64,000 bases of DNA from the IMG/VR virus record IMGVR_UViG_3300027917_000018, positions 64,001 through 128,000 of that record. One strand, given 5' to 3'. The DNA is from a virus (lineage: Duplodnaviria > Caudoviricetes). Every line of letters begins with the position of its first letter. Within the stretch, counting starts at the first letter, position 1. The translations under genes were made by a program, and so were the position numbers. The notes beneath the pieces are model-generated. The model was given only the letters and a program-made list of their open reading frames with translations. It was not told where the DNA came from and did not search any database. Shown piece after piece: positions 17,178 through 60,945 of the stretch.

Positions 17178-18070
17178 AGGTCTTCGCTCAGTTCATTCCA
17201 TTGTTCGGACACCGCCTGGAGCTTTTTACGGGCCGCCTCTTCGGCCTCGTCGCGCTCCGCCCAAAGGTCAGCGTCCCGTACAGAGAACACGGCGTCGCGG
17301 ATCAGGTCGGCAATAACTTGAGGTTCGAGTGCGTCCAGCTCCCAGCTGTCGTTGCCGAATTGGGCAATGTAGGCGGCGGCCCGTGAATCCGTGATCTTGG
17401 CCGGATTGGGCGGCGGCTGGAACTGGTCGATCTGGTCCATGTTGAGCGCCAGCCGCTTGATTTCGATGTCGCGGCCCGCAAACTCGGAGAGCCGGTCCAC
17501 GATGTCGCGGGTCATGTCCTTGCCGGAGGGGTCGTGGTCGCCCAAATGGAACACGAGCGGCGTCTGCCCCTGCCGGGCAAACTTGGCCAGGCGCTGCGCG
17601 GCGCTCCACATCTCCGATTGGCTGGTGTAGCCCCGGCAGGAGAAGTAGGGCACGTCGAGGTCGTTGCACACGCCCTCGATGACACCCACCAGCGCATCCT
17701 TCTCGATCCAGACCTCGACGTGGTAGGGCTGGTCATTCCATTTGTCGAAGCGGAACTGGTTCGCGCAGGCCCGAATGATGTCCGAGGGCGATTCCCAGTG
17801 GGCTAGGCTGCGCAAGTTCCGGGTCCGGTCGACGATGGCCTCCCAGTCAATCAGCCCCGCCAACCGGGCATCGCTGATGATGTCGCCGAGGTTCTTGTAG
17901 TCCTTCTGCGTATTGGGGATCAGGTCGCGGCTGACGAACTGGTAGTAGAGCTGGCGCAGTGTCAGGGTGAATCCCTGCTGCGCGTATTCCGCGATGATCT
18001 GGTTCGCGGTCTCGATCAGCGCCTGGCGGGCCGCGCTGAACCTCTTCTCTCGGTAGCAAATCTTTGGCAT
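17174..18070 (-). CDS. wHTH-Toprim protein (Topo VI-A/JetD-like fold)
   Basis: TLRQLYYQ wHTH; VWIEKDAL, SCRGYTS, HLGDHDPSG Toprim motifs. Confidence 0.8.
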   Translation of the reverse strand: MPKICYREKRFSAARQALIETANQIIAEYAQQGFTLTLRQLYYQFVSRDLIPNTQKDYKNLGDIISDARLAGLIDWEAIVDRTRNLRSLAHWESPSDIIRACANQFRFDKWNDQPYHVEVWIEKDALVGVIEGVCNDLDVPYFSCRGYTSQSEMWSAAQRLAKFARQGQTPLVFHLGDHDPSGKDMTRDIVDRLSEFAGRDIEIKRLALNMDQIDQFQPPPNPAKITDSRAAAYIAQFGNDSWELDALEPQVIADLIRDAVFSVRDADLWAERDEAEEAARKKLQAVSEQWNELSEDL

Positions 18071-18117
18071 GGTACTATCCTTATACCCAAATCTCGGCAG
18101 TTTTTAACCCTTGGCCC

Positions 18118-18426
18118 TTAAGGTTGAGGAAGATTGCCGCTTCCAACGGTGTCGTCCTGAATGGGCTTGTCCGACTCGTCGCGCACTGTCCAGCCCGCCA
18201 GGGGCAGGAGCGATTCGGTGGATTCGTCGCCGGGGCCGGTGCGCCAGAGGATACAATGCTTTTTGTCGACGCGGTAGATGGTCAGCGACCTGGGTATAGC
18301 CCAGGTTCCGCCGTCGTTTATGCGCCCCAGGTGCGCGAGAAGCCACGTCAGCGCCGGGGCAATGTCCTCCCGGCGGGCAAGACTCAGCTGGCCCTTACGA
18401 AGGCGCTCTAAAGCTTGCTTATTCAT
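18118..18426 (-). CDS. Hypothetical protein
   Basis: ATG 18426 (MNKQ...) ATGA-coupled to upstream micro-ORF. Confidence 0.55.
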   Translation of the reverse strand: MNKQALERLRKGQLSLARREDIAPALTWLLAHLGRINDGGTWAIPRSLTIYRVDKKHCILWRTGPGDESTESLLPLAGWTVRDESDKPIQDDTVGSGNLPQP

Positions 18427-18515
18427 AGTAGCGTGCTGGTGAAAGCCCAAACCAGAGCAACAAGCGCCGCCACGAGCAAAATAACGGCGGCGCAGCCAAG
18501 GTCTTCGCGGCTCAT
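18423..18515 (-). CDS. 30-aa single-pass membrane microprotein, not in ORF track
   Basis: MSREDLGCAAVILLVAALVALVWAFTSTLL; ATGA overlaps at both ends. Confidence 0.6.
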   Translation of the reverse strand: MSREDLGCAAVILLVAALVALVWAFTSTLL

Positions 18516-19702
18516 AGGTCCCTCTGAGAACAGGTCATGTAGTGTCCGGCGCTGGGTTCCGCGCTGCATTCGGGGCACGCAACTGGCAACGTTGCCAGTT
18601 CCTCTTCCACCTTGTCGGGAATGTCGGCGATAGCGATTTCAGGATGCTGCATGGCGTAGGCAATCCACGGAGCGGCCTCGGCCATCGTCTTTCCACGGCG
18701 GATGGCTTCGTCCTGAAGTGCGTTCCACCGGTCGAGCTTGGACTGGAACTGGGGCTCGGCGAGCACTGGGTTGGCCTTGGCGATGGCCTCCTCGTCGACC
18801 GCCAGCTTGAGGATGCGGAAGTTGGCGGGGCGCTTCCAAAAGCCGAATAACGGATCGCCTTCCTTGGGCTCGACCGTGGCCTTGAATTCGACCGTGTCGC
18901 CGACCTTGAGAATGTCGGACACGTAGGCGTCGTGCCCAGGCTTCTGCCAGTCGTGGCCCCGCGAGATGTTCACGTCGTCAAAAACCGTGCGCTCCGGGCA
19001 GCTGCCCCACAGCTTCACACCGTTGCCGAGGTCAACCAGGACCTTGGCCGTGTAAGTCGTCAGGGCCGAATAGCGCGACCGCTCGCGCTCCTCCAGGCGA
19101 ATCTTGCGGACGATGCCACGGATGACCTGCCGCCCGGCCTTGGCGGTCCCGGTCGCCTTGGCCCGACGGTCAATGTCGTCCTGGCGAACCTTCTCCAGCA
19201 GCGCGAGCTGCTTCTCGGAGATGTTGCCGTACCGGCGCAGCTTCTCGCAGATGTCCCGCGAAATGCGCGGAGCGTTGGGGCGCTTGGACCACTGGATGAC
19301 GCCGATCGCGTCGGGATTGGCGGCGAGGAAATCAGCCTCGCGCTTGTCGCACGCGATGCGCTGTGCCAGGGCCACCGTCGCGCCCTTGATAATGTCGCTG
19401 TAGCCCGCGAGCGCCTTGACGGTCTTGGCGCAGTCGCGGCCAATCCAGTAACCGTTGCCGGTGGGCCTGTGGGTGACGGCGCAGGCGATCTTCAGGCCGT
19501 GCCCGCACAGGGCGCACCGATTGGCCTCCTCCTTGGGCGCATTGAACTTCTCCCAGTCGGCCTCGTTAAGGACCTCCATCTCGACCACTGGAAGCTGCCG
19601 TCCCGTCTCCTCGTCCTCGTAAACGTCGGTGATTGACGCCACCGCCGTTATCGAAAGCTCGTTGAGGGGCAGGCCCTTGATGCTGTCGGCGCGGGGTGTC
19701 AT
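18512..19702 (-). CDS. Hypothetical protein with Zn ribbons and OB-fold-like region
   Basis: Start at ATG 19702; CALC...C..H, GDTVEFKATVEP...GFWKRP, C-terminal CPEC. Confidence 0.65.
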   Translation of the reverse strand: MTPRADSIKGLPLNELSITAVASITDVYEDEETGRQLPVVEMEVLNEADWEKFNAPKEEANRCALCGHGLKIACAVTHRPTGNGYWIGRDCAKTVKALAGYSDIIKGATVALAQRIACDKREADFLAANPDAIGVIQWSKRPNAPRISRDICEKLRRYGNISEKQLALLEKVRQDDIDRRAKATGTAKAGRQVIRGIVRKIRLEERERSRYSALTTYTAKVLVDLGNGVKLWGSCPERTVFDDVNISRGHDWQKPGHDAYVSDILKVGDTVEFKATVEPKEGDPLFGFWKRPANFRILKLAVDEEAIAKANPVLAEPQFQSKLDRWNALQDEAIRRGKTMAEAAPWIAYAMQHPEIAIADIPDKVEEELATLPVACPECSAEPSAGHYMTCSQRDL

Positions 19703-19704
19703 GG

Positions 19705-20073
19705 CTATTTCCTTCCGGCAAGGGTTTCGATGGCGGCGACGGCGGCGGCCATCTCGCGGCTGCGAGCGGCGGCGTTTTCGGCCTCGATGGCGGCGACGAA
19801 CTGCCCCACGGTGCGGTGCTTGCCCGCTTCGGCGGCGAAGCGCTCGGCGCGCTGGCCGTGCGTCTCGTCCTTGCGCAGCGCAGACCACTTGCTGACGAGC
19901 TGAAGCTGGCGCTTGGACTCGGTCGGGTCGTTGCTACCGGCCACCAAAACGGTGTCGCTGTAGCGGTTGATGCGCAGCTCCACGGAGCCGCCGCTGGGGT
20001 ACTGAACCTTCACCACGAGGCGGTCGTAAGAATCCCGTCGGGTGACCTTGGTTTCGGTAATTCGCTTTGTCAT
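19705..20073 (-). CDS. Hypothetical early protein
   Basis: 122 aa; first gene behind the sigma70-like promoter at 20083-20111. Confidence 0.65.
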   Translation of the reverse strand: MTKRITETKVTRRDSYDRLVVKVQYPSGGSVELRINRYSDTVLVAGSNDPTESKRQLQLVSKWSALRKDETHGQRAERFAAEAGKHRTVGQFVAAIEAENAAARSREMAAAVAAIETLAGRK

Positions 20074-20082
20074 AGCACCACC

Positions 20083-20111
20083 AATATGGCAGCAGCCACG
20101 ACCCAGCGCAA
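20083..20111 (-). promoter_or_regulatory. Sigma70-like promoter
   Basis: TTGCGC-17 nt-(TG-c)CATATT, AT-rich upstream element, 9 nt before ATG. Confidence 0.6.
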
Positions 20112-20147
20112 GAACAAATTAAAGATTTTTGGATACGTCTAACTGGC

Positions 20148-22337
20148 TCATGTGAGCGTATCTACGCCCCACCAACCCGCCGGGCGAGCGGCTATGACCA
20201 TCCAGCCCGTTGCCGCTACTGAAGTCCAGTCTCGCAGGTCGTAGGACGCGTCGTTGAAAAGCGTGTATGGGAAGCCGTTTGGCCCCAAAAGGTCCCTGAG
20301 CTGCGTGTGCAATGCGACCGCCTCGTCCCTGAGCCCGGCACCGACCCAGGCGTGAACCACGCCCGCCGTGCCCTCAATCCAGAGGCCGCCGGATGCGCCC
20401 GGATACCCGTAGTCCGGGCTGTAGGGCGTGTAGCCAACGAAGGTGCCGGACTGGGTGCCGTAGTAGGTGCCGCTGAACTCGCCGACCGGGGCAAAACTGC
20501 CGAAAAACGTGCCGTTGCTGTAAATGCCTCGGGTTTGGTAGTCGGGAATGATGTCCAGGACCACGGTGCCGTGCGGAGCGCCCACGTCCCGGACCACGCT
20601 GGAGTACCAACTGGCCACGTCCAGGGCGTGCGCCGTGTCCGGGCTGCTGTTGTTGGTCATGCCCTGGTAGGCCCGTGGCGGGCTGTAGGTGCCTTGCCAG
20701 AAGGTGGTGTTGAGGACCTGGCCGATGCGCGTGCCGTAGTCGTGCCACGCCTGGCTGCCGGTCATGGCGTAGTATTCCTTGGCAAACCAATAGGCGTCGG
20801 TATTGTGCTCGGTCGAGACCCACGGAACCTGGTAGGTGCCGTTGAATTCCCACACCGGAAGCTGATAGCGGCCCCTGCCGCCCCGGAAGGTGGAGACCTG
20901 CTTGTCATCGCTATCGACCCAGTACTCCGTGACCATCGTTCCGGCGAACTCGCCCAGGACGTGCTCGATCGAGCTTTGCAGGTCGGGCGGCACGGTCGGG
21001 GCCTTGTTCAGGTACCAGGCCAGGGCCGAGGCGCACCAGAAGTTGGCCCCGGTTCGGTAATACGGATCGGGAGGAACGGCGGAGACCGTGTTTACCGAGA
21101 AAGCCCACTGGCGATCCAGCGGGGTCCACGCGGCGACGAGGCCCCGCGACCAGCGCTCGGCGGTCTCCCAGTCCTCCATGCCCACGGCGGCCACAATTGA
21201 GAGAGCCTGATCGTAGGTGTAGGTGCGCTTGTAGAGGTAGGGCCACGACGGATCGCTCTGGTCCATGCCGTAGGAGCGGAGCAAGCCCTGACCCCAGTAA
21301 TGCTCGGCGATGAGGTTCTCCTCGGGAACCTTGACCAGTTTCAGGGTCTTGTAGCCAGGGGTGCCGAACGGGATTGAAAACCCGCCCAGCACCGCCCCGG
21401 ATTGCCCGACCGTGGTGCCATACGCGTTGGCCACCAAATCTGCGCGCTTGATGCCTGAATCGGTCTCCGCCACGAATCCGTAAACGAACGGCGCATAGGT
21501 GTGGCCGAAGATGCCACCGTCGCTTTTGCGGATGAGCTTGGCGATCTTGGTGCCCGTAAACGCTTGGGCCGCCGCCCAAGTGCCGTCGCCTTGGATCGTG
21601 CCGGTGGACTGGTAGTAATCCTGGTCGGTCTTGCTAAAGACCTGAATTTCATAGTCAGCGTACTGGCCGGGGTCCAGGCCCTCCACGCGGCCCACGATGG
21701 GGCCGAAGCTGCCTGAATACGGGTAGGGCTCGCTGAAAAGCACGGCTCCCGTAAACAGATTCGAGCGGGAAATCAGGTAGGGGATGTCGCTGACCGCGTA
21801 GATGTCCACGCGGAGGTCAGTGCCTGTGAAGTCGGACGGAAAGGCGGTGGCGCGACCAGCGGCACTTCCAGTATAGCCGTAGTCGTAGGTGCCCGTCTGG
21901 CTGTAGTCGAAGGTGCCGTCCGGGTTCGTTCCGTAGAAAACCAGTTCAGCCCGGTTGGGCGTGGCGCTCCCGACGAAGTAATCAACGTCGCTGGTGTTGT
22001 ATCCCCGGATCGAGTACTCGGTGTAAGCGTCGGTGCCGATGCCGGTGACGATGCCCGACACTTCGCCAACGTAGCTGGGCGCGTACGATCCTGTAAACGA
22101 AAGGCCGCTGGTGCCGTTGTAGAAGGTCGGCGGGTTCTCCAGCGTTTTGAGGACGGCGAAGGTTTCGTTTACGAAGTCGGCATCAAAATAGGCAAGCGGT
22201 GGCGTGGGAGGCGTGGGCGGAGCTGGATTGACCGGCCCGCTGCCATCGCTGCGGCCCGTGCGGCTGGTGTTCCAATAGGACGGAGCTGGCCATTTGTCCC
22301 CGGTCCTATCGAACGGGCGGATGACAAACGGAGGCAT
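20148..22337 (-). CDS. Six-hairpin (alpha/alpha)6 glycosidase-like protein with beta-rich N-terminal half
   Basis: YTYDQAL, WVSTEHN, LWIEGTAG, SVAATGW motifs; aromatic-rich. Confidence 0.65.
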   Translation of the reverse strand: MPPFVIRPFDRTGDKWPAPSYWNTSRTGRSDGSGPVNPAPPTPPTPPLAYFDADFVNETFAVLKTLENPPTFYNGTSGLSFTGSYAPSYVGEVSGIVTGIGTDAYTEYSIRGYNTSDVDYFVGSATPNRAELVFYGTNPDGTFDYSQTGTYDYGYTGSAAGRATAFPSDFTGTDLRVDIYAVSDIPYLISRSNLFTGAVLFSEPYPYSGSFGPIVGRVEGLDPGQYADYEIQVFSKTDQDYYQSTGTIQGDGTWAAAQAFTGTKIAKLIRKSDGGIFGHTYAPFVYGFVAETDSGIKRADLVANAYGTTVGQSGAVLGGFSIPFGTPGYKTLKLVKVPEENLIAEHYWGQGLLRSYGMDQSDPSWPYLYKRTYTYDQALSIVAAVGMEDWETAERWSRGLVAAWTPLDRQWAFSVNTVSAVPPDPYYRTGANFWCASALAWYLNKAPTVPPDLQSSIEHVLGEFAGTMVTEYWVDSDDKQVSTFRGGRGRYQLPVWEFNGTYQVPWVSTEHNTDAYWFAKEYYAMTGSQAWHDYGTRIGQVLNTTFWQGTYSPPRAYQGMTNNSSPDTAHALDVASWYSSVVRDVGAPHGTVVLDIIPDYQTRGIYSNGTFFGSFAPVGEFSGTYYGTQSGTFVGYTPYSPDYGYPGASGGLWIEGTAGVVHAWVGAGLRDEAVALHTQLRDLLGPNGFPYTLFNDASYDLRDWTSVAATGWMVIAARPAGWWGVDTLT

Positions 22338-54336: not shown

Positions 54337-54526
54337 GCGGCGGGCACTAGAGGTCTTGACCACAGCCTGTCACTGGTGCGGTGCTCCGGGTGCCACGCGT
54401 CAGCCCTGCCGGACGGCCTACGCGGATGACCGGCTCAATGAGGTCCATGCGCTATGCCCTGAGTGCGCGGAGGAATACCACGCCTACTGGGACGCAATGT
54501 GGGCCGAATATCACGCATCGCGATGA
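54320..54526 (+). CDS. Small Zn-binding protein
   Basis: TTG start; CHWC ... CPEC. Confidence 0.5.
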   Translation: MSTAIKRRALEVLTTACHWCGAPGATRQPCRTAYADDRLNEVHALCPECAEEYHAYWDAMWAEYHASR

Positions 54527-54753
54527 ACGAAGAAGAAAAAGCCAAGCTGTGGAAGCTGGTGGCCCGGTGGCATAAGGACGCCGACCAGTACGCCAAGCAG
54601 GTGGAGGAGGCGCGAGCTGCTGGAACACCGTACGAGCAAATGCTGGCGGCCAAGACCTTTCTGCGCCAGTGCGGCAAGGATTTGGAAGCAGTCGTTCATG
54701 AAATCACGGCCCCGAAAGAACAGCCGAAGCCCGAAAAGTCAGCTGAAGGCTAA
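54523..54753 (+). CDS. Small helical protein
   Basis: ATGA coupling. Confidence 0.55.
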   Translation: MNEEEKAKLWKLVARWHKDADQYAKQVEEARAAGTPYEQMLAAKTFLRQCGKDLEAVVHEITAPKEQPKPEKSAEG

Positions 54754-54902
54754 GCTGGCGAGACTGGCACTTGAGTACGCTCACTGCATTGCCCGCAAGA
54801 ACTACTGGGCGCAGCGGGCGGAAAACGTCGCCATCCGCAAGACGCTCCTGAGTAATCCCACGATGACCCTCCAGGAGCTTCGCCCGCGTAGTTAAAGGCA
54901 AG

Positions 54903-55934
54903 ATGCCAAAGTATGCAGTCGTGCCAAGCCACCTGATGGGCGGCCCGGAGAATCCCGGCATGCGCTGGGATGCCGCCTATTTGATGATCCTGGCCGACCT
55001 GCTCAATCCCCAGCTGTCGATCGAGGAGGCTACCGATCTTTTGGAGAAGCACCTGGAGGAGAAGAAAATCCGGGTAGGCGACCTGTGGCGGCTTTCCGGG
55101 ACCCCATCCGCCGTCAAGGAGCTGGGCAAGAAGTTTGGTCTCGAAGTTACGGATCGCGTTCGCCCGCGATTCACGGCGGTCTTCATGGAGCTGCTCCGGC
55201 GGCACAAGGACCGGCTCCGGCACCAGGCCAAGAGCATCGAGCAGCAACTGGACGACCTTGACCAGCGTTTCCAGGCTGAAGCCCTCGCCGCCAGCGTGCT
55301 CGAAGGCTACAGGGAGACGGATGATTACAGCGCCGAGTACGCCAAGTTCAACGATCTATCCAAATGGCCAATTTCTGCAAAAAGAGGCGCTTTCTTGGAC
55401 TATGGACTGGCCAAGGAATGGGCTCGGTATTTGGCAAACGGAACCTACACACTTGATTGGTGGGGCACGCGGCTGGAGGACATTCCTTGGGCTGCCGAAA
55501 GCATAGCCAGGTTTTTTGGGTCCAAATGGGAACGGAAAGAAGACAGGGAAGCCGTTCAAACTCTCAATAATGCAGCGGCTCAAGTCATTGACGTTGAGAC
55601 GATCCACGAGCCACTAGCGCTCCCGCCTCCGCGCACGACCGGCGAATCCTTGGCCGCCAGCGTGCTCGAAGGCGTCGTATTGGAGGGTGAGGGCATCGAG
55701 GCCCGCCTCAAGGCTGCCGCCAAGAAGATCAAGCATTCCGGGGATTACGGGATGCTTTACTACCATCCCGAGAAGCACGAGGTCCACTGGACGGCGGCGG
55801 ATTCGGACGGTGAGCCGGAGCACACGGGCGGCCCCGAAATCATCAAGCTGCTGAAGCTGGATGGCATCAAGCACGTCGAGGTCGGTGACGAGTGGTCCCC
55901 GGACGAGGACGAAGGCTGGAAACGCCTGATATGA
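54903..55934 (+). CDS. Three-module protein with repeated AASVLEG linkers
   Basis: GTAGTTA at 54888-54894; EALAASVLEG and ESLAASVLEG. Confidence 0.75.
   Translation: MPKYAVVPSHLMGGPENPGMRWDAAYLMILADLLNPQLSIEEATDLLEKHLEEKKIRVGDLWRLSGTPSAVKELGKKFGLEVTDRVRPRFTAVFMELLRRHKDRLRHQAKSIEQQLDDLDQRFQAEALAASVLEGYRETDDYSAEYAKFNDLSKWPISAKRGAFLDYGLAKEWARYLANGTYTLDWWGTRLEDIPWAAESIARFFGSKWERKEDREAVQTLNNAAAQVIDVETIHEPLALPPPRTTGESLAASVLEGVVLEGEGIEARLKAAAKKIKHSGDYGMLYYHPEKHEVHWTAADSDGEPEHTGGPEIIKLLKLDGIKHVEVGDEWSPDEDEGWKRLI
55287..55673 (+). repeat. Exact 21-bp direct repeat flanking a low-GC module
   Basis: GCCGCCAGCGTGCTCGAAGGC at 55287-55307 and 55653-55673. Confidence 0.95.
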
Positions 55935-57124
55935 CGCCCAATCAGCAAGATCGCGCTCTGAAGAATGCCAGCCGGTGGCTGCACAAGTACCGGCGGGCCG
56001 CCCGGCAGACCCTTGGCCCGGAGCGCGCCAAGTATCAGCAAGCCGCCCGGAATTATCGTGGATGGATTTCAACGCTGCGCCGGGACATTGCGAACCGGCC
56101 CACAGAAGAAGGAATTGAGATGAGCAAACTGCACGAAGCTTACGGCTGGGTGGTCAGCTATGACGCCCCAGGTGGCACGAAATGGTACTGGGGCCAGAAA
56201 GGCTGGGTTCAGGACCGGCATCAGGCCAAAGCCTCGATGAAGAAGGCCGATATGATCAGCCTGGCGCAAAGCTTGGTGCGCAACGCCCCGGCCTTGCAGG
56301 ACCGCATCGGCGTTCAGGTGAACGCACCGAAGTTGGAGGGCATTCCTGCAAACACGGGCGAAGATGAAGGGTTCCGTCGGATGAAGCGCCTGGCCGCCAG
56401 ACCGGACAGCGAGCTTGGACCAAGCGCACGCCGCGCCAAAGCGCGGTTCCTGGCGAACAACAAGAAGGCCGATGCCATGTTCAAATGGGCTAAGGGCGTC
56501 AAGGAGGACGTGCCTTTTGCCCAGCCTGCCGGTGGGCCGGACGACCCGTGGCGGCAAAGCATAGTGAAGGTGCCTTACGACCAGTTCGATTTCAGCGGCA
56601 AGCGCGGCAAAGAAGACGTGGAGGACGAGGACGACGAGGAAAAAGAGACCGAGAAGCCCAAGGCCAAAAGCCGTTTTGACCTCAAGTTCGATGAGTCCGA
56701 GACGCTCGCCTCCAGGGTCCTGGAGACTGGCGAACGCAGCAAGCGCGACATCTACAATGAGCTGGAGCGCTTGTGGGCGGAGCGCGACGAGATGCAGCGG
56801 CTCCAGCGGTTCATGGCCAAGTGGGCGCTCATCAAGGACGAGCTGGGCATCAGCGACGCGGACATCCAGGCCCTGGACATCGAAACCAAGGGCGACGGCA
56901 GCAAATGGGCGGTGGGCATCTACCTCAAGGAGCCGCGCTATGACCTGAAGATGCAGCGGGCCGACGCCCGCCGTAAACGTTTGGATCGTGAGTGGGCCGA
57001 GAAGAATCCTCATTTGCACCGCAGTCAGAAGCCGTCGTGGTCGCCGGGTCACCGGCATTCCAGCTCCAGCTACATCGCTTTGGAGCAGCCGCTTTATCTG
57101 CCCAAAGCCTACTTCAAGAAATGA
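55931..57124 (+). CDS. Multi-module hypothetical protein
   Basis: ATG 55931; linkers LHE, KLEG, ETLASRVLETG. Confidence 0.7.
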   Translation: MTPNQQDRALKNASRWLHKYRRAARQTLGPERAKYQQAARNYRGWISTLRRDIANRPTEEGIEMSKLHEAYGWVVSYDAPGGTKWYWGQKGWVQDRHQAKASMKKADMISLAQSLVRNAPALQDRIGVQVNAPKLEGIPANTGEDEGFRRMKRLAARPDSELGPSARRAKARFLANNKKADAMFKWAKGVKEDVPFAQPAGGPDDPWRQSIVKVPYDQFDFSGKRGKEDVEDEDDEEKETEKPKAKSRFDLKFDESETLASRVLETGERSKRDIYNELERLWAERDEMQRLQRFMAKWALIKDELGISDADIQALDIETKGDGSKWAVGIYLKEPRYDLKMQRADARRKRLDREWAEKNPHLHRSQKPSWSPGHRHSSSSYIALEQPLYLPKAYFKK

Positions 57125-59708: not shown

Positions 59709-60278
59709 ATGCCAATTGTCAAAAACTTCACCCGGCAGGCCAGCAGTGCTGGCGGCGACCTCGTGCCCGTGCTCAAGAGCCTGGGCGGCGACCAGTTTGA
59801 TGAGCGCACGATGGAGCTGCGCAATTTCTTTGGCATCAAACTGACGACCACGGACGTTAATCGCAGCGGCGCGTCTACTCCGGTGGACGACCAGTTCACG
59901 GTGGCGCTCACGCAAGGTGTTCAGGTCATGCTGGAATATCGAATTGCCTGGACGCTTCCGGCGTCTCCGACTGCTACAGGCATTGAGTTTGGCTGGAATT
60001 TTCCGCTCTCTCCAGCCTTCACGGACGGCTACCAAATCAACTGGTATGAGTCGATCGCCGCAGGTGCCAGCACTATTGTAGGTCTTGTTTCCAATGGCGA
60101 GGGAGCGCCTGTGCCCATCTTTGCCAACACCACTGCCATTCGGAACAACGGCAGGTGGCACGTCGAGGGCTTCTTTGTTGTGACACCCACGTCGAGCGGC
60201 AACGCCGAATTCTTTTGGGGCAATTGCACGGATGTTACCCGCAGCGCGGGCAGCCACGTGCGCGTCACACCTGTATGA
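59709..60278 (+). CDS. Beta-rich putative virion protein
   Basis: T/G/V-rich beta-sandwich-like composition. Confidence 0.6.
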   Translation: MPIVKNFTRQASSAGGDLVPVLKSLGGDQFDERTMELRNFFGIKLTTTDVNRSGASTPVDDQFTVALTQGVQVMLEYRIAWTLPASPTATGIEFGWNFPLSPAFTDGYQINWYESIAAGASTIVGLVSNGEGAPVPIFANTTAIRNNGRWHVEGFFVVTPTSSGNAEFFWGNCTDVTRSAGSHVRVTPV

Positions 60279-60610
60279 GTCGAGCCCGCGCCATCTTGGA
60301 AGCGGAGACGCCCAAGAGCGTTATGGCGGAGCTGCCATCGGATGAAATTGAAATCCGTTGTCACCTTCAGGACAATCGGCTTCACAGCGGGCGGGAGGTT
60401 TCCGATCCTGGCAGTCACTTTGACCGCGTGGTTGTTTCGGGCCGCGATTGGCCAAAGGTCGAGCAGCTTGGGCTTTGGCTGGAGCCCGACCCGGACGAGC
60501 GTGGCGTTTACTGGTGCGGCGACCTTTACGTCACCGAGCTGCAAGGTGCGCTTGACGATGCCGGGATCAAGCATGACTGGTGGGAAAGCGATCCCCTGGA
60601 GGACGAATGA
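60275..60610 (+). CDS. Small acidic protein with MSRARAILEAE leader (copy 1)
   Basis: ATG 60275 overlapping upstream stop. Confidence 0.65.
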   Translation: MSRARAILEAETPKSVMAELPSDEIEIRCHLQDNRLHSGREVSDPGSHFDRVVVSGRDWPKVEQLGLWLEPDPDERGVYWCGDLYVTELQGALDDAGIKHDWWESDPLEDE

Positions 60611-60945
60611 GCCGCGCCCGAGCCATCCTGGAGGCTGAGCCTCGCGACCTGATGCGCCGCGCCGCCCAGCGTGAGAAGGCCGAGGCAGGCAAGTGGCCGG
60701 TTCAACCCGGCGACAAGGGCTTCCTTTTCATTCTCGGCGAGAATCCGAACCTTTCTTTGAACGTCTACGCGCCGACCACCGCCCTGGCCGTCGAACGCTG
60801 CAATCAGGTTCTTAAGGAGCTGTTCCCCGACGGCTTGATGCACCGGAATGACCGCTGGGACACGACCTTTCATTTTGATTGGACGAAATTGGAGGCCAGG
60901 GACTCGGACATCTACGATGAGTGGGCGCTGGATGCTGAGCGGTGA
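60607..60945 (+). CDS. Small protein with MSRARAILEAE leader (copy 2)
   Basis: ATG 60607 overlapping upstream stop. Confidence 0.65.
   Translation: MSRARAILEAEPRDLMRRAAQREKAEAGKWPVQPGDKGFLFILGENPNLSLNVYAPTTALAVERCNQVLKELFPDGLMHRNDRWDTTFHFDWTKLEARDSDIYDEWALDAER

Follow-up and report, generated by a model that had tools for sequence, protein, structure and literature searches.

T4-type phages are already known to shuffle sequence at conserved linkers, both between genes, at promoter early stem-loops (PeSLs), and within adhesin genes, at glycine-rich motifs (GRMs). ORFans flanked by PeSLs excise as mini-circles that carry one chimeric PeSL, and phage RB49 holds ORFan192 between two PeSLs at a place where phi1 has a single PeSL (PMC2839356). 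Recombination in T4 needs less than 50 bp of homology (PMC2839356), and exchanges at conserved coding motifs have been documented in gp38 (PMC3157838). Short leaders, the capsid targeting sequences (CTSs), load internal proteins and are then removed by the prohead protease, which in T4-type phages cuts after Glu (PMC5694885, PMC3012670). Here we analyzed P0001, a gene for a three-module protein in a T4-type jumbo phage of ~203 kb from marine sediment, in which an orphan module lies between two exact copies of a 21-nt sequence. The window is a stretch of 64,000 nucleotides that covers bases 64001-128000 of one virus record, 202,975 bases long and obtained by metagenome assembly (IMGVR_UViG_3300027917_000018; G000:C1), and window positions, used below unless genome positions are named, are genome positions minus 64000. 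By analogy with the systems above, the P0001 cassette appears to work like a PeSL cassette or a GRM-bounded segment that has been moved into a reading frame and tied to the leader/junction peptide of a T4-type head system.

According to the list of open reading frames (ORFs) and its translation, P0001 occupies 54903-55934 on the plus strand, which is also the strand of its modules and junctions, of the variable block and of the neighbouring junction and leader peptides given below. It encodes 343 amino acids, and its stop codon shares bases with the start codon (ATG at 55931) of the gene that follows. The N module (aa 1-125; 54903-55277), delimited by an AlphaFold2 (AF2) model and by homology to a second protein, P0003, is helical and ends in a long helix (aa 87-133). 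It is followed by junction copy 1, E-A-L-A-A-S-V-L-E-G (55278-55307), which is kept together with the N module in P0003. The middle module (aa 136-247; 55308-55643) was delimited by composition, homology searches and AF2, and is predicted to be helical at low confidence. Junction copy 2, E-S-L-A-A-S-V-L-E-G (55644-55673), comes next, and directly abutting it is the short stretch V-VLEG-EG (55674-55694), which contributes a third VLEG. The C domain (aa 265-343; 55695-55931), a small alpha/beta domain, closes the protein and is defined by 14 homologous proteins and by its predicted local distance difference test score (pLDDT) of 85-95.

The original prediction, made from the letters of the window, had reported an exact 21-bp repeat that encodes AASVLEG and keeps the reading frame, and we confirmed this. 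The 21-mer GCCGCCAGCGTGCTCGAAGGC lies at 55287-55307 and 55653-55673, in frame within the ORF at both sites, with a spacing of 366 nt, or 122 codons. With the three codons upstream included, the copies read E-A/S-L-A-A-S-V-L-E-G, so that the full repeated unit measures 30 nt, of which 27 are identical; all three mismatches fall in the first 9 nt, and the exact part, the last 21 nt of the unit, is sharply bounded on either side. Copy 1 is preceded by GAAGCCCTC, which uses resident-type codons, and copy 2 by GAATCCTTG, with the different spelling GAA TCC TTG. After copy 1 comes the low-GC3 module, and after copy 2 the resident C domain begins.

The repeat is rare as a DNA sequence. A scan of the window that tolerated up to 3 mismatches revealed no third copy, and none of 100 shuffles yielded two matches. 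Across the whole genome the 21-mer occurs at these two sites only, even with 4 substitutions permitted. It is the fifth-longest exact repeat in the genome, in which repeats of 16-19 nt are at chance level and chance-level repeats end at ~19 bases. Three of the four longer exact repeats are closely spaced (15-159 nt apart), and the fourth is a dispersed 27-mer. Identical codons at all seven AASVLEG positions have a probability of 5e-4 under the codon usage of the genome and of 0.002 under the codon identity measured among other copies of the leader peptide described below, while the third VLEG, only 4 nt past copy 2, uses four different codons (GTA TTG GAG GGT). Because this codon identity is improbable and the third VLEG is spelled otherwise, the two 21-mers appear to share a recent common descent that goes beyond their shared peptide, which points to a recombination event. 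No inverted repeats were found at or beside the 21-mers.

We further analyzed the composition of the middle module. Its GC content is 0.536 and its GC content at third codon positions (GC3) is 0.583, compared with a GC content of 0.615 in the flanks and a GC3 of 0.79 in the N part and 0.83 in the C part (Fisher's exact test for GC3, p = 2.9e-5). Against a genome-wide reference of 3,623 windows of 115 codons from a rough gene set (mean 0.771, standard deviation 0.065), the insert stands at about the 1st percentile, 2.9 standard deviations under the mean. The original prediction had expected formal analysis of GC3 to set the insert apart, and the difference was strong (0.58 vs 0.79/0.83); its estimate of 45-52% GC was right in placing the insert below its flanks but slightly too low for the insert as a whole, which averages 54% and reaches 48-49% in its lowest 120-nt windows. 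The dip in GC3 covers codons ~135-232, and GC content rises again in the final ~18 codons ahead of copy 2. Because 20 other genes that bear the leader/junction peptide are not atypical (mean GC3 0.746 vs 0.741 for the remainder), the anomaly belongs to the middle module and not to the gene class.

The reading frame of the insert is open, and each of the other five frames contains 2-5 stop codons. A phmmer search with the insert against 1.84 billion representative proteins returned only its own protein, the ESM Atlas gave no feature match and TM scores of at most 0.42, and nothing was found in Pfam or PHROGs. A transposable element, whether a miniature inverted-repeat transposable element or an insertion sequence, was rejected as a candidate, as the insert has no terminal inverted repeats and tblastn detected no other copy in the genome. 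An intein and a group I intron were likewise set aside, with no Pfam family and no Rfam match at E ≤1. On sequence grounds, the middle module is probably a recently acquired in-frame cassette from a source of lower GC content.

Alleles of the locus were obtained from Logan contigs of four sequencing runs aligned to 54500-56400. Two marine-sediment runs, X1 and X3, are the probable source of the phage, and X4 (estuary) and X6 (marsh) come from separate studies. In X1 and X3, the whole gene is covered by contigs of 1,820 nt that differ from the window at 0-1 positions, and in X6 a 151-nt contig over 55594-55744 (150/151 identity) contains the insert joined through copy 2 to the C domain. The estuary run carries the other state. 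Its bridging contig, also of 151 nt, is composed of 55185-55262 (3 differences in 78 nt), 32 other letters and 55676-55716 (1 difference in 41 nt), that is, 96% identity in the N module and 98% in the C domain, with a single junction and no insert. This contig is in frame, reading ...KSIEQQLDDLD-VRFAAESLAQD-VLEGEGIEARLKA with a C-terminal side that begins VLEGEGIEARL. The block that differs between the two alleles, 55263-55675, measures 413 nt in P0001 and 32 nt in the estuary allele, a net difference of 381 nt, which makes the latter 127 codons shorter. A second X4 contig covers 55741-55888 with 2 differences. There is no X4 cover over the insert, and words of the insert were recorded for X1-X3 and X6 only; small shares and coverage holes are not evidence of absence, and the bridging contig alone is counted here.

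Thus, phages whose sequences flanking the module agree at 96-99% differ in whether they carry it, and the event is therefore recent, in agreement with the unadapted GC3. An allele with one linker and no insert had been named in the original prediction as a thing to look for, as had alleles with different inserts. A different module behind the junction is seen in P0003, a protein of 211 aa from a different sequencing run and the only other protein with the N module in a collection of 5.8 billion proteins. Residues 1-137 of P0003 are 73% identical to the N module (aa 1-~137), and the homology includes the junction, AESLAANVLEG, after which an unrelated tail of ~70 residues follows. A 366-bp deletion was also anticipated, and none was seen in the contigs; that no X1 or X3 contig shows a precise 366-nt deletion carries no weight, because contigs drop rare variants. 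X4 records 12 and 14 and X3 record 11 gave short matches of ~86% with unlike flanks and were left out of the comparison.

The junction region itself appears to be a mosaic among the three known alleles (P0001, X4 and P0003). The X4 junction peptide is of the P0003 type (VRFAAESLA) on N-module DNA of the P0001 type, and its VLEG, which corresponds to the third VLEG of P0001, is spelled with the codons of that copy. The first 12 nt of junction copy 2 match the X4 junction at 11 of 12 positions. The suggestion that a foreign domain had been inserted in frame gains from the low GC3 and the insert-free allele; as no homologue was found anywhere, no donor can be named.

To place the junctions among other genes of the phage, we compared them with a peptide, (M)SRARAILEAE-S/T-P-R-x-h-h-K, which ~20 genes either start with or hold between modules, and which includes a subclass of leaders of the form LA.AVLEG-ESPR. 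A position matrix for the first half of the leader was built without the two copies of P0001 and ranked over 59,160 positions of the proteome; copies 2 and 1 ranked 20 and 29, with 9.7 and 6.0 bits. In addition, 8 of 10 residues of the P0001 junction are identical to EALAKAVLEG at genome position 200388. The second half of the leader (E-S/T-P-R/K-x-h-h-K/R) is missing from P0001, in which YRETDD comes after VLEG at copy 1 and VVLEGEG comes after it at copy 2. Both copies stand at module boundaries: homology to P0003 stops just past copy 1, where the composition also breaks, and the homology of the 14 C-domain proteins starts just past copy 2. Judged by these similarities, the P0001 junctions are likely, if weakly matching, members of the leader/junction family. 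In the window, the next gene contains an internal junction peptide, ETLASRVLETG... (56696-56734; 24 bits against the leader profile), and two neighbouring genes starting at 60275 and 60607 begin with full leaders, MSRARAILEAE... (60272-60642; 42.6 and 34.3 bits), whose DNA differs at silent sites.

A second exact island in leader/junction code was found outside the window, 8-9 kb past its end. The dispersed 27-mer lies at genome positions 136259-136285 and 137457-137483 and encodes EAAETPRSV, the second half of the leader. One copy stands between modules of a 750-aa open frame; 1.2 kb downstream, a small gene has the other in its leader, and the flanks are unrelated on either side. Apart from this 27-mer, the genome has no further dispersed exact repeat above 21 nt, and two of its three longest dispersed repeats fall in leader/junction code.

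For the origin of the P0001 cassette, we lean modestly towards entry by homologous recombination at junction code through a single Campbell-type crossover. In this process, a small DNA bearing the module and one junction copy would cross over once with the resident junction, in the reverse of the mini-circle excision of PeSL cassettes. Such a crossover would duplicate exactly the stretch common to both partners, here the 21-mer, and would leave recipient sequence outside and donor sequence inside the two copies. A single crossover is proposed because the exact stretch is duplicated, the outer flanks are of resident type and the inner ones of foreign type, and the spelling upstream of copy 2 differs. 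We infer from this pattern a crossover within the 21-mer, a circular intermediate and a gain rather than a loss.

The resemblance to PeSL cassettes (Arbiol et al. 2010, PMC2839356; PMC4122927) is close in several respects. In both cases a T4-type phage carries an ORFan-like unit flanked on both sides by a short conserved sequence, and the unit stands between two copies in one phage while a near-identical relative has a single copy, here X1, X3 and X6 versus X4. For both, it is proposed that the two copies recombine by homology, that the unit leaves as a mini-circle and that it can insert again. However, PeSLs are intergenic, ~100 bp long and composed of a promoter and a terminator hairpin, whereas the P0001 repeat is 21-30 nt long, intragenic, peptide-coding and frame-keeping, with no inverted repeat. 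Genes move there and protein modules here, and mini-circles, demonstrated for PeSLs, were not observed here.

Several observations weigh against entry by a crossover at the 21-mer. Identity between X4 and P0001 falls off at 55262/55263, which is 25 nt ahead of copy 1, and is regained at 55676, 2 nt beyond copy 2; across the 45 nt of junction codons the two alleles share only 58% identity. Because identity breaks outside both copies, the crossovers cannot be placed in the 21-mer. Nor is the X4 allele a simple product of deletion between the two 21-mers, because the expected QRFQAEALAASVLEG-VVLEGEG is not seen. The insert-free allele is one 151-nt contig at a depth of 3, and the searches yielded no donor, no alternative insert and no circular form. 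With regard to the leader family, the P0001 copies resemble the first half of the leader alone, the full 25-column profile giving non-significant scores of 6.0 and 4.0 bits (E 2.7 and 12). P0001 also has no N-terminal leader (it starts MPKYAVVPSHLMGG), and only its internal half-motifs match the leader model. Finally, the other junction copies differ freely at silent sites, so the identity at the DNA level is local. Four copies of the leader stretch RARAILEAE have 22 of 54 codons in common (41%), as codon usage predicts (~0.27-0.54 per residue).

The proposal that the linker code serves as a recombination handle is therefore sustained in part. In its favour are a codon identity beyond what selection on the peptide would produce, the insert-free allele and the second island of 27 nt; against it, both 21-mers lie inside the variable block and not at its edges, and other junction copies are not conserved as DNA. 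On present comparisons, the junction code does not appear to be a general DNA-level handle in this genome.

The breakpoints are better matched by the import of a diverged allele block, 55263-55675, through crossovers in the N and C modules, an alternative that we hold to be a serious but minority possibility. Here the 21-mer would be uninvolved, its identity either inherited from the donor or homogenised by short gene conversion. Consistent with such an import, the similarity breaks at 55262/55263 and 55675/55676 fall outside both 21-mers, the end of the N module (QRFQAEALA vs VRFAAESLA) was swapped together with the insert, and the estuary junction resembles that of P0003 (VRFAAESLA), which makes the P0001 version look imported. 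The 27-nt island with unrelated flanks is also what short-patch conversion would leave. However, a donor with a foreign module between identical junction codes would still need an earlier insertion at a junction, and conversion tracts of 21-27 nt without flanking homology are unusual. It is improbable, in our estimation, that the module is ancestral and was lost in the estuary phage by deletion and local change, the low GC3 reflecting constraints on the module or an old acquisition. In T4-type phages, direct repeats do make deletion more likely (PMC2839356), a single insert-free contig is available, and two alleles cannot give a direction. Nevertheless, the estuary allele reads VRFAAESLAQD where a deletion from one 21-mer to the other, or from the first VLEG to the third, predicts QRFQAEALAAS, and the distant P0003 also has no such module while carrying a junction of the estuary type. 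A GC3 that lies 2.9 standard deviations under the mean of the genome, in contrast to the normal values of other leader-bearing genes, and the absence of a homologue in any other phage further argue against an ancestral module.

Two simpler explanations carry much less weight. It is very unlikely that coincidence gave both copies of a selected peptide the same codons, most of them preferred ones: 6 of the 7 codons end in G or C, and GCC, GCC and GGC are the commonest for their residues, but the probabilities of 5e-4 and 0.002 are low, CTC accounts for only 0.22 of Leu usage, and the third VLEG has four other codons. A chimeric contig joined at a short repeat is conceivable in principle for a metagenome assembly, and its probability here is close to nil: the 1,820-nt contigs from two samples span the gene with 0-1 differences, the unrelated marsh contig spans insert, copy 2 and C domain, and the 21-nt repeat is shorter than the 31-mers from which Logan contigs are built.

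Exchange at coding motifs has a further parallel in the GRMs of the gp38 adhesin and the tail-fibre motifs of T-even phages (PMC3157838, citing Tetart et al. 1996, 1998). Conserved coding motifs inside a gene part variable segments there too, and recombination at or near the motifs gives in-frame chimeras. GRMs differ in that they form the structural core of one domain, around which homologous loops are exchanged, whereas whole unrelated modules are gained or lost in P0001, and the motif here is a leader/junction peptide common to many genes.

The peptide may also relate the locus to the phage head. The junction peptide, h-x-x-V/I-L-E-G/A, fits the (L/I/V)-x-Glu site of T4-type prohead proteases, and the phage encodes both a T4-type prohead protease (Peptidase_S77, PF03420, 73.8 bits, genome positions 17418-17888) and a gp23-type capsid protein (PF07068, 94 bits, 19314-20438). 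The internal proteins IPI-III and Alt of T4, which carry a CTS and are cut by gp21 (PMC3012670, PMC5694885), resemble this arrangement: many unrelated proteins carry at their start one short peptide that ends in hydrophobic-x-Glu, and a T4-type protease and gp23-type capsid protein are present in both. The IP loci of T-even phages are also highly polymorphic. In T4, however, the CTS is N-terminal on single-module proteins, whereas P0001 has a half-motif between modules and no N-terminal leader, and because that leader is absent, the place of P0001 among head cargo is uncertain. By sequence, P0001 appears to fit the definition of a CTS protein only in part. By analogy with T4, the junction probably also separates or addresses modules in the head, and we infer that P0001 may be cut by the protease, packaged and carried as a cargo protein.

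As a speculative extension, to which we assign a low probability, junction peptides may serve as integrase-free in-frame attachment sites. Modules would loop out as circles and re-enter at any junction of a co-infecting phage, head-delivered proteins would be built combinatorially from a shared pool, and the peptide would be both protease site and joint. In the literature searched, ejection proteins, polyprotein, prohead protease and domain shuffling were nowhere treated together in one paper. What is new in P0001 is that the linker is a putative head-protease or targeting peptide between unrelated modules, and that both allelic states were caught. In-frame insertion and excision at junction code would provide a testable mechanism for building and varying multi-module, possibly head-delivered, phage proteins, and it suggests a route by which orphan protein modules spread. 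If the junction is cut as well, the evolution of modules, their loading and their release would all be tied to a single short peptide.

The outer modules of P0001 have few relatives. Pfam contains no family for the whole protein or any single module, INPHARED blastn returned no relatives, and an IMG/VR search with P0001 gave two loci only, each a C domain at 40% identity, and none with the next gene. JGI metagenomes searched with an alignment of the N module yielded nothing, as did a search with a fragment of its end, and a metagenome scan with a pattern for the beginning of the C domain matched once, by chance, in a gene unrelated to it (L007). The C domain (aa ~262-343) is 62-81% identical to the C-terminal or an internal part of 14 proteins that are otherwise unrelated to P0001, and a short N-terminal peptide of the type M..A..IV.KLLE is found in many of these. 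One of the IMG/VR matches is a 656-aa protein (L001:4945-6915, IMGVR_UViG_3300037466_003244) with an N-terminal head-maturation protease region (phrog_80, 5e-14) and a C domain of the P0001 type at residues ~380-457 (40% identity), and the same match was obtained in L002. This copy, fused to a protease, suggests that the domain may reside in the head interior.

In the AF2 model, copy 1 lies at the end of the long helix of aa 87-133, and copy 2 begins a helix (aa 250-273) that leads into the confident C domain. The middle module was modelled poorly, with a pLDDT of 47 alone and below 55 in context. A fold search of BFVD with the whole model gave nothing at E <0.1, and the best scores of a VIA-wide fold search (Z 7.0 for the N module against AerR, ~6 for the C domain against the C-terminal domains of MamM/CzcD) are at noise level, so no function was assigned.

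Module order differs between two proteins of other phages, P0016 (L006:4001-5089, NCBI GCA_040384245.1) and P0013, which have two modules and the C domain in common. A module of ~55 residues that ends EPH-Q/W-I/L-VRE stands before the large module in P0016 and between the large module and the C domain in P0013, with breakpoints at short h-x-E motifs. Based on these arrangements, module order appears to be fluid across this protein family and not in P0001 alone.

Several further features were observed around these genes. The prohead protease domain lies in a 555-codon frame (genome positions 17331-18995) that continues into a long, charged, helical, scaffold-like region and may be a protease-scaffold fusion. 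The gp23-type capsid gene (18999-20495) encodes ...SRFTEVLEWG... ~25-35 residues from its likely start, where V-L-E is similar to the junction peptide and is a candidate propeptide cutting site. Just downstream of it, an AT-rich exact repeat of 20 nt, TTAAAGAATTTTGTTGACGG, occurs at genome positions 21011-21030 and 21861-21880, 850 nt apart, and may be regulatory. Within the cluster of junction-bearing genes, the second gene downstream of P0001 (56992-59262; 756 aa) has a NUDIX hydrolase domain at residues 229-338 (PF00293, 2.5e-17) amid unknown parts. Upstream of P0001, X1 and X3 contain distinct contigs over the stretch 54528-54724 (197 nt, in the small ORF 54463-54753), one of which departs from the window at 19 positions and the other at 3. 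Most of the 19 changes lie a multiple of three apart, on third codon positions, and the rest of the region is identical, which looks like a co-occurring strain with a diverged patch.

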